A model generated the notes under the pieces. It was not told the origin of the DNA. It made no database searches and was given only the letters and a program-made list of their open reading frames with translations. The position numbers were made by a program, and so were the translations under genes. A stretch of 64,000 nucleotides of DNA from Eledone cirrhosa. Its lineage: Eukaryota. Shown piece after piece: positions 3,755-56,124 of this stretch. Position 1 is the first letter of the stretch. Each line of letters opens with the position of its first letter. The stretch spans positions 56,730,001 to 56,794,000 of the forward strand of contig OZ024748.1 in NCBI GenBank assembly GCA_964016885.1, given 5' to 3'.

Positions 3755-3836
3755 GCCTTTACCGCGGTTTCCGATCCCAAAATAAATAGATAATCCAAGC
3801 GAATTTCTATTGAGAATGAGATCATCGTCAGAAGGC
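3755..3836 (-). ncRNA. Type I hammerhead ribozyme motif with extended stem II
   Basis: Minus strand: GCCUU-CUGACGA-UGAUCUCA...UGGGAUCG-GAAAC-CGCG-GUA-AAGGC. Stem I is 5 bp, stem III is the palindrome ACCGCGGU and the cleavage triplet is GUA. Confidence 0.8.
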
Positions 3837-4863: not shown

Positions 4864-5107
4864 GCTTGGTATATGATCTCGTCTCCGATTCTGTGATGTA
4901 TATATATATATAGTTATACTTGGGGAGGGTCATATTGTTGTAATAATATTGCCAGAATTAATAACAGAACACACTCCCTGTTTGGTTGGTGTTCGCTTCT
5001 GTATCTTTTATATTAGTTAATTTATTCGGTCCTCAATATTTACCATTGACTGACGAACGGTCAAAAATTCAGATATAATAATAGACACAAACACATATAT
5101 ATAGTCT

Positions 5108-5414: not shown

Positions 5415-6330
5415 GTTGTTATTCCATTCATTTTTTTCTGTTTAGCTTTGGCCCTCTAAATTCTATTTCGCTGGCCTCACTGATTTGCCTATCTGCTGGG
5501 CTATTTCTATGTTTAGATATTATTTTAATTTCTATGTTGTCTATTTTCCGTCATGTTGTTGTCTGGTGTGTTCGTATAGTACTGAACCGTATTTTCGTCC
5601 TTTGAGTTCCCCCCAGTGTTGGTGTATCCTTTCACCTATGCTATGATCTGTCTCACCTTTGTATGTTGTTGTCATGTTTCTGCAAGTACCCTCTGTACAT
5701 CTGATGCTATAGACTACGTTTCTAGTTTTACAGTTTTTCCGGGGGTTCACTTTACATATAATACATTTCCTATTAGTACAGTGGGTTTTCTTAAACGGGT
5801 AGATTTTGCTGATCAGGGATTTTATGGTGGTTCCTGGCTTTTCTACCACCTTTATTTTTAAGTGGGTCTTTCTCAGGGCCTTTCTACACTGGTTAGCTAA
5901 TTTCCCTCCAGCGGTAGCGTCCACGAACATGACACTCTGGTATCTCTGGTTGTCGTACCATGAGGTGGCTTTCCCTATCTTATGTTTAGTCCTATCTAAG
6001 CTATTCCATGATTTTCTCCTGTATAATGTGCAAATTCCTTTCATGTCCAGTTCTATGAGGGTCTTATACTTCTCCGTGGCTCCTTCGTATACTCTGATTC
6101 TGTCTCTTTGGTTGTAGCCAGCGAACTGCATGCGATTGATGAAGTGTTGGATGTCTCTTTCCATTTCTGTTAGGTCGCACAGGTGGGACACGTTCTTCAT
6201 CACTCGTACCAAGTCTGCGATCAGAATATTAAACTTAGCACTGCTGGACATTGCTGAGTTTTTGAGTATCAGGTATTTGGAGTCCATGGGTTTAGCGTAG
6301 TGTGAGTGGAGAATTTGAGCCCTTTCGTCT
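5415..6330 (-). pseudogene. Penelope-like ORF fragment: RT C-terminal region, Cys-rich linker and GIY-YIG endonuclease
   Basis: HYAKPMDSKYL...ADLVRVMKN; CTNRKCIIC; NVVYSIRC...YKGET..SIGERIHQH. After a frameshift near 5545 it continues RQISEA..I...PKLNRK. Confidence 0.85.
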
Positions 6331-6540
6331 TTGGTCAGTCAATGGTAAACATTGAGGACCGAATAAATTAACTGATATAAAAGATACAGAAGCGAAAACC
6401 AACCAAAAAGTGAGTGTGTTCTGTTATTAATTCTGACAATATTATTACAACAATATGACCCTCCCCAAATATAACAATATTTGTTTCGACACACGATTTC
6501 ATATCAAAAACCTCGCAAAACAAATTTATATATATATATG

Positions 6541-7190: not shown

Positions 7191-7249
7191 GAATCTGAAG
7201 AATGAAATTTATTTAATTCCTGGTTCGTCTAGTGAAACGGTCGTAATTT
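7191..7249 (+). ncRNA. Type I hammerhead motif, core intact, stem II damaged
   Basis: GAAU-CUGAAGA-AUGAA...UUCGU-CUAGU-GAAAC-GGUC-GUA-AUUU. Confidence 0.55.
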
Positions 7250-52360: not shown

Positions 52361-53498
52361 GAACGTGAGTGAGGTTGGAGGAATAATATATAAAGAATCA
52401 AACTGTAAAAAAAAAATGGAAGAAAAAAAAATGGTGGCATGCTCTTGGTGCTTTGTTCATTAGCTGATGTTGGTTATACAATATTGGCTGGGTTGATTGC
52501 GTGAGGTCGGTGTCGCCGTGGGGTCGTGTAAAGGCGAGGTCGGTAGATGTTTAGACGAGGGTAGGAGGTGAATGGACCCTGCGGAAGGATTTGTTGTTGT
52601 TGTTGGTGGTGTGTGTGTAGTGTCGCTGTCGGATGGGGGTAGGGGATCTATGGTCTGGGGTTAGATATATCTGTCTCCTGCAACTTCAGCTGCTGCTGAT
52701 GTTTCTGCTGATGTTGTTTAGCTGTTGTTGCTGTGCTATCTCTACAACTGCTGCTGCTGCTGCTGCTGGTGTGGATATTGTTATTGTTGTTGTTGTTTCT
52801 GTTTGTTCTATGGTGGCGTTGGTGTTGAAAATGCGGATGGTGATTGCGGAATTGATGGTTGTGGTGACGGTGGTGCTGGAGTTGTGTGATTTTGTTGTTG
52901 GTGTTGGTGTTGGAGATATTTATGGTAGTGGTGATGGCGGTGCAGGAGTTGTGTGTTTTGTTTGTGAGTGTTGGAGTAGGTTTTTTGAGTTGATATTTTG
53001 TTGTTGTTGGATGTGTTAGTGTTGGTGTTGGAGAATTAGGGATGATGCTGTTGACAAGAGAAGGAAATGATAAGAGGTGAGATATAGTTAGAAAGGTGGT
53101 CATATTTGGAAAGGCTCATGATTAGACAAGATGCTGAAGAGAGAAAAGTGACGATAAGACGAAAAAATAGAGACGGTGAGAGATAGAAAGTATTGGTGAT
53201 CGATAAAGGGGAAAAAAGAATGCATATAACAGAAAGAAAAGAGAAAGATAGAAAGAACAAACGAAAGAAAGAAGGAAAGCAAGGGATGCAAAGTGAATGC
53301 ATGGCTGAAGAGAAAGAGAGAGTAATAAAGAGCTAGAGAAAAATCAAAGAGATCGAATATGCAATAGAGAGATGGTTAGAGAGAGATGCTGAGGGTGATA
53401 TACTGACAAATACATTTATTAAGAGAACGGAGATAGATAGATGGATAGAAAGAGATATAGATAGAGAGAGAGAGGGATAACGAGGGTAATATATATAT

Positions 53499-53556
<58 letters not shown>

Positions 53557-53681
53557 CCACTGATGAATTATAAGAGCCAACTTGAATAATTATCTGTTGA
53601 TCTTATACAAGCTTCTACATAAATTGGTATAATTTTACCCAAATTGTAGGAATCTTATAATGAAACGAGACGTCCGTCTGG
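53557..53681 (+). ncRNA. Type I hammerhead ribozyme motif with branched, enlarged stem II
   Basis: CCA-CUGAUGA-AUUAUAAGA...UCUUAUAAU-GAAAC-GAGACGUCC-GUC-UGG. Canonical core, 9-bp stem II base, GUC triplet at 53676-53678. Confidence 0.82.
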
Positions 53682-53886
53682 AAGAGATATGTTCGATATG
53701 TCTCATATGAAATAATACAGCCAATTTTCCACACAATACATTTAGTTAGCACCCGAACACTTAATTGGGAATATACTCACTTATGTCCTAACGTTTGTTG
53801 AGTGAGTAGGAATTTGGCCGGAGTATCGCTAAAAGCTTTCTCCGATAATGTATATATATATATATATAATATTCCCACACACTTTT

Positions 53887-53920
53887 CACCTGAAGAAGGG
53901 CTTATACCCGAAACGTTGTT
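53887..53920 (+). ncRNA. Minimal type I hammerhead motif
   Basis: CAC-CUGAAGA-A-GGG-CUUAUA-CCC-GAAACGUU-GU; stem III palindrome AACGUU; AATAAA about 35 nt downstream. Confidence 0.72.
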
Positions 53921-54012
53921 CCCCACCACCACCCCACTCTCAAGAGCGTGAAATTAATAAACATTCGTTGTACTGCCTCTCTGTCTTGTTCCTGTTCAAA
54001 TTTTCCATTATA

Positions 54013-54077
<65 letters not shown>

Positions 54078-54111
54078 ATATATTATATATATATATATAT
54101 ATATTATATAT

Positions 54112-54265
<154 letters not shown>

Positions 54266-54297
54266 ATATATATATATATATTTAAAGGTTAAACAAG

Positions 54298-54355
54298 GTT
54301 ATCTGATGAGGACGTACTGTTGAAGATAGCTCAGTACCTCTGAAATATGTATAAT
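54298..54355 (+). ncRNA. Type I hammerhead motif
   Basis: GUUAU-CUGAUGA-GGA-C-GUACUG...CAGUAC-C-UCU-GAAAUAUGUA-UAAU, overlapping AATAAA. Confidence 0.62.
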
Positions 54356-54941
54356 AAAATATATTTGATCACACGAATGTCTATTTTTGTTAATATTTTG
54401 AATTACTATATATATATATAGAAGTGTGTACGGATATATATATATATATAAGTGTGTACAAATGTATATATATCAGTATATATGCGCATGTATATATATA
54501 TACAACGTATTTGTTAGACTAAGAGTGTCTAGGTATGTATCTCCCCATGGAGTCGACACCACCAACACATCCACCACACCACCACAAACGCCACTACCAT
54601 AAACAACACCACAACCACGCCCCACACACGCCAACCCGTCTACCGACAACCCACTACCCCCGTACCACAGCCCATCCCAGTCAGCGACCGTCACCATCAT
54701 CTTATCATCACATCCACCCCCACATACACTACAGGCCAAAGCCAATCCGCCACCACCTCCCCACAGCCAATCGCAGCCAGTGACCGTCACCAACATCTTA
54801 TCATCACATCCACCCCACATACACTACAGGCCAGTACATCCCTTTGCTCCTTCCCACCAATCAAAACAACTCATATTGTCAAACTCTTGAACTTCTGTCT
54901 TTACCACATAGCATGTATTTCATTTCTTATAGTATTTTAAA

Positions 54942-55028
54942 GGGTCCGTCGAGCTGCCGATCATTGAGTCGGGTTGGATCGATACAGATCGAACCTTGAG
55001 CTGATCAGTGGCGAAACGCGCGTCACCT
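54942..55028 (+). ncRNA. Type I hammerhead fold with mutated core (CCGUCGA) and long stem II
   Basis: GGGU-CCGUCGA-GCUGCCGAUCA...UGAUCAGUGGC-GAAAC-GCGC-GUC-ACCU followed by AATAAA. Confidence 0.65.
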
Positions 55029-55179
55029 ACCAATAAATGTAATGAAGGAGTAACCAATCGTCCTTGTTATCCTTTCAATATATTACATTCTGTATAGCTC
55101 TACAACTCAACACAGAAGTGAACCTAAACATCGAGTGCTCTCCCGGGTGAACCTGCAGTAACTCCAAGTTACACCCCCT

Positions 55180-55243
<64 letters not shown>

Positions 55244-55339
55244 TAACGAGCGTAATAGAGAGAATGAGATGAATTAAAAAGTGAAACGAGTAAGATATCC
55301 AAACAGAGAGTGATCGAAAGTCAGATCCATAGAAAAAGA

Positions 55340-55373
<34 letters not shown>

Positions 55374-56124
55374 TGAGAGAGAGAGGAAAAAATATAATGA
55401 AAAGTGCAAGAAACACAAAGAAGAGAGAAATATGGAGAGAGAGAGAGGGAGAGAGAGAGAGAGGGTGAGAAAGAGAGAGAAGGACAGAGAGATTAAGTGA
55501 AAGAGAGAAAAGAGACAGACAGCTTGACAGGCAGACAGGCTGACACCTAGAATGCGGACAATGGACAGAGAATGTTAAATCTTTAAATGATGATAGGAAA
55601 AAGAGAATGATGGAAAAACAAAAGTAAATTTCAAAAAAAAAAAGGAGAATGGAGCCACACAGAGAACGAAGGTGCGAGGATATACCGTATATATATATAT
55701 ATATATGAGAAGAAAGAAGAATACTGCGTGGTTGCACATAGGTTACATATGATAAAAATAGTCCTTCGTCAGTGATTTTCCAACCATCATTGGTATTTCA
55801 TCGCATTAAAAATCAGATACCTCAGGTTGGTGCGAGCAATAACTAAATAAAGTTATTGGGACCAGTAATTCGCGTATAGCGAGGGAGACAAGTAAACAAC
55901 ATAGAAGGATAAAAGCAAACCAAATATAGGAAAATAAACAAGCAACATGGTTGCCCTGTCAGCTTAAGCTGGGTAGATTTCATGAGCAAGAGAGGTACAG
56001 ACCGTGCGATATGCGTGAGATGTAAGCATGAAGAGACCCACTACCAGCCAAACGGGAAGAAGTGAGAAGGGGAAAAACAGAGAGTGAGTGGGTGGAAGTG
56101 TAAGGAAGAGGTCAGACGAGAGAT

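Follow-up and report, generated by a model that had tools for sequence, protein, structure and literature searches.

A hammerhead motif with a branched stem II in a non-coding repeat family of the Eledone cirrhosa genome

The DNA analysed here is a 64,000-nucleotide stretch (the window, whose coordinates are used throughout) of contig OZ024748.1 from Eledone cirrhosa, a 3.0 Gb, (TA)n-rich animal assembly. At 53557–53681 on the plus strand it contains a type I hammerhead motif in which stem II is a 95-nt three-way junction composed of a 9-bp base and two hairpins; the first-pass annotation had described a hammerhead with a two-hairpin insert in stem II at this position, and inspection of the sequence, a motif scan and folding all recover it as described. 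The motif, all of it on the plus strand, opens with the 5′ strand of stem I, CCA (53557–53559; CCCA or TCCA in the family to which it belongs), followed by the catalytic box CUGAUGA (DNA CTGATGA; 53560–53566) and the 5′ strand of the stem II base, ATTATAAGA (53567–53575), which pairs perfectly over nine base pairs with the 3′ strand, TCTTATAAT, at 53653–53661. The 77 nt enclosed by this base comprise an unpaired junction, GCCAA (53576–53580; GCCCA or GCCCG in the family, and the predicted partner of an upstream GGGC in full copies), hairpin 1 (CUUG...CAAG, 53581–53611), which is the helix with the most covariation, and hairpin 2 (UUCUACA...UGUAGGA with an inner GGU/ACC stem, 53613–53651). The GAAA box, a near-palindromic stem III (ACG-A-GACGTC-CGT) and the GUC site occupy 53662–53678, with the predicted cut after 53678; GAAA itself is at 53662–53665, ACGAGACGTCCGT spans 53665–53677 and a C is at 53678. 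Read onwards from GAAA, the window copy continues as ACGAGACGUCCGU, the C at 53678, and then UGG, the 3′ strand of stem I (DNA TGG, 53679–53681; UGGG or UGGA in the family). Directly 3′ of the cut is a further hairpin, GAGAUAU...AUGUCUC (53684–53704, plus strand), which is also predicted in copies of diverged subfamilies. CUGANGA, GAAA, A15.1-U16.1 and NUH are all present and in the right order; the core had been called canonical, which holds for CUGAUGA, GAAA and GUC but not for the first pair of stem II, an A-U rather than the usual G-C. The 95-nt domain folds with a z of −3.1, one of 200 shuffles being equally good.

The window copy forms the 5′ end of a 297-nt piece flanked by TA runs, and is a 5′-truncated member of a 696–767-nt non-coding repeat that ends at (TA)n. 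The 3′ tail of the element extends on the plus strand from 53679 to the fixed 3′ end of the family at 53853 (...CCGATAATGTAT), where a TA run begins, and a second (TA)n run, at 53489–53555, lies at the truncated 5′ end and occupies the place of the family's GGGCAC upstream of stem I. Stem I is 3 bp in this copy and 4 bp in the family, and fold prediction for the window-copy monomer gives pair probabilities of no more than 0.08 for stem I and 0.00 for stem III. Because it lacks the GGGC and a tandem partner, is truncated at stem I with the loss of one stem I pair, and has GCCAA at the junction, the window copy is probably inactive. This truncation and probable inactivity were missed by the first-pass annotation, as were the 700-nt repeat unit and the dimer requirement proposed below. 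A second, tail-only copy of the family is present at 24594–24772 (plus strand), between TA runs. The expectation that standard descriptors would miss the motif is borne out: Rfam at the gathering score returned 0 hits in the whole window, and with E values up to 10 there was no hammerhead among 37 hits in 53000–55600, just AT-repeat microRNA look-alikes; a published core search used a 7–17-nt spacer, according to the sections of PMC8557442 that we draw on.

Enlarged stems II had also been proposed at 3755, 4774 and 54942, and these do exist, but they belong to other families and have unbranched predicted folds where folded. A hammerhead motif on the minus strand at 3831–3760 has a 53-nt unbranched stem II and a palindromic ACCGCGGT stem III; a decayed motif with a 60-nt stem II lies at 54946–55024 (plus strand), and a decayed one with a 63-nt stem II at about 4860–4775 (minus strand) is of the same family, one with the ACGCGCGT stem III; the cores of these two are altered, to CCGTCGA and ATGACGA respectively. 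The family with the 60-nt stem II has 874 pattern matches, and consensus folding of 26 of its sequences recovered only 4 pairs. A further, rod-like and very abundant family with a 100–115-nt stem II accounts for most of the matches listed for a pattern that hits 9,367 places; its copies (L086–L115 and L177–L183) often occur as inverted pairs, and some adjoin Penelope-type ORF pieces, for which a GIY-YIG match fell below the cut-off (E 0.03). Three hammerhead-like cores with 13–32-nt stems II are found on the plus strand at 53890–53915, 54303–54353 and 7195–7245. We note that four different hammerhead families occur within 1.5 kb of the 53557–53681 motif, beside TA runs. Elsewhere in the window, pieces of another repeat, recognised by eye, lie at 6300–6500 and 4920–5050 (both plus strand) beside a decayed RT-like stretch at about 5500–6340 (minus strand), and there are homogeneous long minisatellites of 37, 42, 73 and 60 nt at 17776–19850, 20379–21328 and 46746–47885.

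A pattern running from the core to stem III has 866 matches in the genome as compared with one for the reversed pattern, and the motif is thus not a chance occurrence. A pattern for diverged subfamilies has 659 matches (control 0), and a third, which partly overlaps the others, has 408 (control 2); the non-coding repeats that carry the branched motif number more than 1,500. The best 40 copies elsewhere in the genome are 93–95% identical to the window piece, and the 29 of these that were inspected have a common 3′ stop and nearly all reach further upstream. In a sample of 115 copies extracted from 120 loci, the 3′ end motif is present in 107; it gives way to TA in 99 of these and to a further unit in the other 8. 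Nine cut-to-cut intervals at eight loci, including one mixed-subfamily pair and one unit with a core deletion, measure 696–767 nt. These units have a GC content of 31–34% and a longest ATG ORF of 58 amino acids, fold as circles 19–45 kcal/mol below the mean of eight shuffles each, and when in tandem are joined tail to head without an ORF between them; compared with the tails of two other hammerhead families, they show no similarity among the matches listed. An ORF start at a short ATG frame that runs over GAAA was considered and set aside, as subfamilies D and F do not keep the frame. Three contig runs (type unrecorded, one sample) contain the family, and are unsuited to showing ends or expression.

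Upstream homology in the 115 copies extends no further than 649 nt and thus stays inside the unit, and no RT or GIY-YIG ORF adjoins the motif as it would in a pseudo-LTR arrangement in any of them; a 4.6-kb repeat spacing at locus L176, examined as a candidate pLTR-ORF-pLTR structure, has no RT-like ORF inside, and a search for a helper element with the same 3′ end found none among the matches listed. Most copies reach upstream past the cut, with a median of 273 nt upstream of the motif, and uncut or re-ligated RNA would therefore be the main template. Several loci have more complex arrangements: two subfamily A units, a short TA run and a subfamily D copy follow one another in the same orientation at L044/L045 (the mixed tandem having a 712-nt spacing); L098/L099 is an inverted head-to-head pair of 5′-truncated subfamily E copies, a structure typical of Penelope insertions; and at L008 a truncated family copy follows directly, with no TA spacer, on the 3′ terminus of a Penelope-type ORF that has a small hammerhead of its own and lies upstream of position 1501, reflecting either a template switch or a deletion. 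Penelope-like elements are described (in the portions of PMC8557442 and PMC11167929 consulted) as having an insertion pattern with a constant 3′ end, variable 5′ ends, partly tandem copies and microsatellite targets, and the family shows all four. The reading that fits it best is a retrozyme-like, non-autonomous derivative, or parasite, of Penelope elements.

Conservation of the branched fold was evaluated in an alignment of 45 copies chosen across subfamilies, with 21 of 60 extracted close copies and 24 diverged ones. The RNAalifold consensus is again this three-way junction, and 7 of its 26 pairs carry double changes. Five measures were compared with shuffles, and two of them fail. The 32 named pairs are paired in 94.3% of cells as compared with 88.0% in shuffles (0 of 500 as good), and sliding the partners reduces this to 34–49%; the number of doubly changed pairs (9, against 8.7 in shuffles; 328 of 500) and the number of pair types (457 of 500) are not above shuffle level. 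Among structure pairs in which both columns vary, 4 of 8 are both paired and doubly changed; for the other column pairs this is true of 63 of 1288 (p 4e-4 by Fisher's test, with an effective n of 8.75). When subfamily clusters are built from the 3′ tail alone, those whose domain has 69–73% identity to the cluster of the window copy retain the fold, and each of the three helices has compensatory pairs. The stem II base shows A-U/G-C and A-U/U-A swaps, hairpin 1 shows U-A/C-G, G-C/A-U and C-G/U-A swaps, and hairpin 2 shows C-G/U-G/U-A variation. The first stem II pair is A-U, U-U or G-C according to subfamily. Domain length is about 93–97 nt across lineages, and between lineages that are about 70% identical this length, the GCCC of the junction, the GGGC upstream of stem I and a large part of hairpin 2 hardly vary. 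We conclude from these alignments, which represent some six to nine related lineages, that the branched fold is under selection. The first-pass annotation had suggested a structural variant and had named an insert that is unconserved or unstructured among copies as part of what would speak against it; the pairing relative to shuffles, the RNAalifold consensus and the subfamily swaps point to an insert that is both conserved and structured.

Stem I is 4 bp in the family and its fourth pair covaries (CCCA/TGGG versus TCCA/TGGA). Stem III, a near-palindrome in the window copy as had been noted earlier, forms perfect palindromes in diverged subfamilies (ACGATCGT, ACGGCCGT and ACAATTGT) and varies as a palindrome from one subfamily to another (ACGAUCGU, ACGGCCGU, ACAAUUGU). 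Every sampled subfamily retains the core, the NUH and the palindromic stem III; at the cut, two of them mostly read GUU. Predicted stem III self-dimers have energies of −6 to −15 kcal/mol and monomers 0, and a double hammerhead with both junctions intact is the best co-fold in one of four tandem pairs (locus L129). The core would thus be surrounded by three helices with stem I open-ended, in which stem II covaries and stem III is predicted to form between two motifs. Because stem III is palindromic in diverged subfamilies, it seems likely that cleavage proceeds via dimers, as in Penelope-type hammerheads. A 2017 paper in RNA Biology reportedly deals with dimeric Penelope hammerheads.

Two bases upstream of CCA, 98 of the 115 copies have the sequence GGGC, while the three bases preceding it take at least 12 forms; the junction is GCCC in most copies. 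GGGC:GCCC pairs in 89.8% of cells with no double change. The pattern with 408 matches was aimed at a family with another junction, and among its first 100 matches there is none, these 100 comprising just subfamily D and decayed copies. As a pseudoknot, the pairing would lie some four base pairs further out than the usual loop-loop contacts, by our own estimate. In predicted folds it often forms a hairpin at the expense of the stem II base, and in four of seven copies the stem II probability is 0.00–0.12. We favor a pseudoknot, because a helix linking the stem I and stem II regions is a known activator and because these motifs are without a loop I. The first-pass annotation had suggested that the extra domain may provide tertiary contacts or a protein-binding site, and GGGC:GCCC would be a candidate for such a contact. 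An alternative register, TAGGAGC/GCTCCTA, was considered as a family-wide switch and discarded, being confined to subfamily A. A broader proposal, that the three-way junction and GGGC:GCCC act as a switch or a docking site for the Penelope RT that decides whether the RNA is cut, and that oversized stem II domains, in several shapes, are a large class of animal hammerheads missed by standard searches, is tentative; we regard the two parts together as possible and somewhat short of probable.

A reverse transcriptase that copies cut RNA must stop at +1, and 5′ ends at that position can thus be read as a trace of cleavage. This was examined in 93 subfamily-A-type matches whose sequence departs from the full copy 17 nt upstream of the cut. 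Fourteen of them begin exactly at +1 (13 events, as two look like one), compared with just nine breaks over positions −1 to −16. Subfamily D shows a weaker repeat of this pattern, with 6 of 83 matches at the cut and 11 breaks over 19 positions; from counts made by eye, the Poisson probabilities are 3e-10 and 1e-3 respectively. The baseline is higher in a control stretch of the tail, at about 2.4 per position when the 100 matches listed are scaled to all 178, and against it the excess at +1 has a p of only about 1e-3; this control also peaks at TA-like microhomologies, with 6 at one site among the same 100 listed matches. Junctions were checked for 17 candidates and three upstream breaks, and +1 and +2 are indistinguishable in most of them; three events (L186, L190/191 and L192) have junctions that are out of TA phase and exactly at +1. 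The pile-up of truncated 5′ ends at the cut appears to be a good, but indirect, sign of cleavage in the living animal, and the truncation points of other copies indirectly support a cut after 53678.

The explanation that we consider fairly probable is of a type I hammerhead with a covarying three-way junction, carried in a 700–770-nt non-coding repeat that is likely copied into (TA)n by a Penelope-type RT, and that likely cuts after GUC through paired palindromic stems III. Read-through transcripts of tandem units would form a double hammerhead and release unit-length RNA, on which reverse transcription would begin about 175–185 nt downstream of the cut; running off at the cut end would give short copies starting at +1, and continuing through uncut or re-ligated RNA would give the longer and tandem copies. 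The branch most likely stands in for the absent loop I-loop II contact: its junction GCCC would pair with the GGGC that closely precedes the 4-bp stem I, and the two hairpins would organise the junction and may bind a helper protein.

Several observations bear on other readings of the branch. The size of stem II looks unconstrained, as unrelated families in this genome reach 32, 53, 60 and about 100–115 nt in various ways; the domain is not more similar from one subfamily to another than the 3′ tail is (69–90% versus 74–90% identity), and stem II tolerates engineered aptamers, as described in the part of PMC12192606 that we cite. The branch could then be a tolerated self-folding spacer, with selection only preventing misfolding of the core and nothing added to catalysis or protein binding. 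However, a spacer need not keep unpaired letters, and the near invariance of its length, of the unpaired GCCC, of the upstream GGGC and of much of hairpin 2 leads us to regard this as rather doubtful. It also seems unlikely that GGGC:GCCC is an off-switch, such that single units acquire a hairpin over CUGAUGA and an opened stem II base, and cutting needs a dimer or a protein. Four of seven single-copy minimum-energy folds do use GGGC:GCCC over the stem II base, and in subfamilies E and G the pairing reaches 6 bp; the extension of most copies through the cut (median 273 nt) suggests that much of the template is uncut or re-ligated, and a published Penelope hammerhead requires its protein, according to the sections of PMC11167929 covered. 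Folding programs are nonetheless unable to form pseudoknots and would render any such pairing as a hairpin, and the stem II base is favored (0.54–0.88) in the window's own subfamilies.

The weakness of stems I and III, and the peaks at TA-like positions in the tail, could alternatively mean that the core is vestigial and that the 5′-end pile-up comes from RT stalling at structure or from TA microhomology. We think this very unlikely given the retention of the core, the NUH and a stem III that changes as a palindrome in all sampled subfamilies, and given that a stall at stem I would presumably fall near +4 rather than +1, where the three events out of TA phase exactly lie. The sister family with the rod-like long stem II shares the ACGATCGT palindrome and adjoins Penelope-type ORFs (L086, L177), which raises the question of whether the unit is a mere pseudo-LTR of an ORF-bearing Penelope-like element with full copies outside the sample; the confinement of upstream homology to the unit in the 115 sampled copies, the tail-to-head tandems and the empty spacing at L176 make this quite unlikely.

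The preferred reading, a dimer-dependent hammerhead copied by a Penelope-type RT, has counterparts in known systems. The minimal Penelope hammerheads, as presented in the consulted text of Cervera and de la Pena 2014 (PMC4209133), have a helix I of 4–5 bp, a helix II that is a 6–8-bp hairpin, a constant G10.1-C11.1 and a double-hammerhead (dimer) design; our family resembles them in its type I core, short helix I, longer helix II, palindromic 15.2–16.2 region, predicted dimers and mostly scattered truncated copies, but differs in having a 95-nt three-way junction as helix II and in lacking a constant G10.1-C11.1, and no ORF-bearing form was found in 115 sampled copies. Animal non-LTR retrozymes, proposed as non-autonomous Penelope derivatives (PMC7229834; bioRxiv 10.64898/2026.07.22.740005; both drawn on in part), share with the family non-coding, low-GC (<45%) units with one type I hammerhead each, tandem or dispersed (Cervera and de la Pena 2020, PMC7229834). 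Their monomers are of ~300 bp (PMC7229834), or about 300–390 nt in the two sources, a typical size rather than a strict criterion, compared with 696–767 nt here, and unlike retrozymes as PMC7229834 describes them in the part covered, the family has no loop 1 for the usual loop-loop contact and consists mostly of 5′-truncated singles. Retrozymes are expressed as monomeric linear and circular RNA, whereas the present family is known from genomic DNA. In pseudoknot-stabilised hammerheads (Perreault et al. 2011, PMC3088659, in the portion cited) a helix of four or more pairs between the stem I and stem II regions replaces the loop-loop contacts, a role that GGGC:GCCC may have here; the U10.1-U11.1 start of stem II in some of our subfamilies occurs among them as well, but their stem II is short (often 2 bp), whereas our candidate pairing uses the junction strand after an 8–9-bp stem and is without covariation. 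PAc Penelope/Poseidon (Frangieh et al. 2024, PMC11167929) is similar in its fixed internal RT start, AT-rich targets and hammerhead in a repeat; it is autonomous and, in the sections of that paper covered, has no RNA reads ending at the cut, in contrast to the genomic 5′ ends that mark the cut here. A natural branched stem II was not found in the literature covered; long stems II may be shown in the supplements of PMC4209133 and PMC8557442. The family would act as dimeric Penelope-type hammerheads do, within an element that resembles retrozymes, and departs from the Penelope-type and retrozyme descriptions in its branched stem II and its unit size.

Natural hammerheads have been described as compact. 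In animal genomes rich in retroelements, searches with short spacers would count too few ribozymes. The portions of PMC11167929 and PMC8557442 cited present in vivo cutting by Penelope-type hammerheads as an open question, and the 5′-end pile-up would offer a readout of such cutting from DNA alone. The family is also a source of natural variants for bench tests. A 95-nt domain that covaries across the family would mean that natural stem II arms, like those of engineered aptazymes, are able to hold a folded module.
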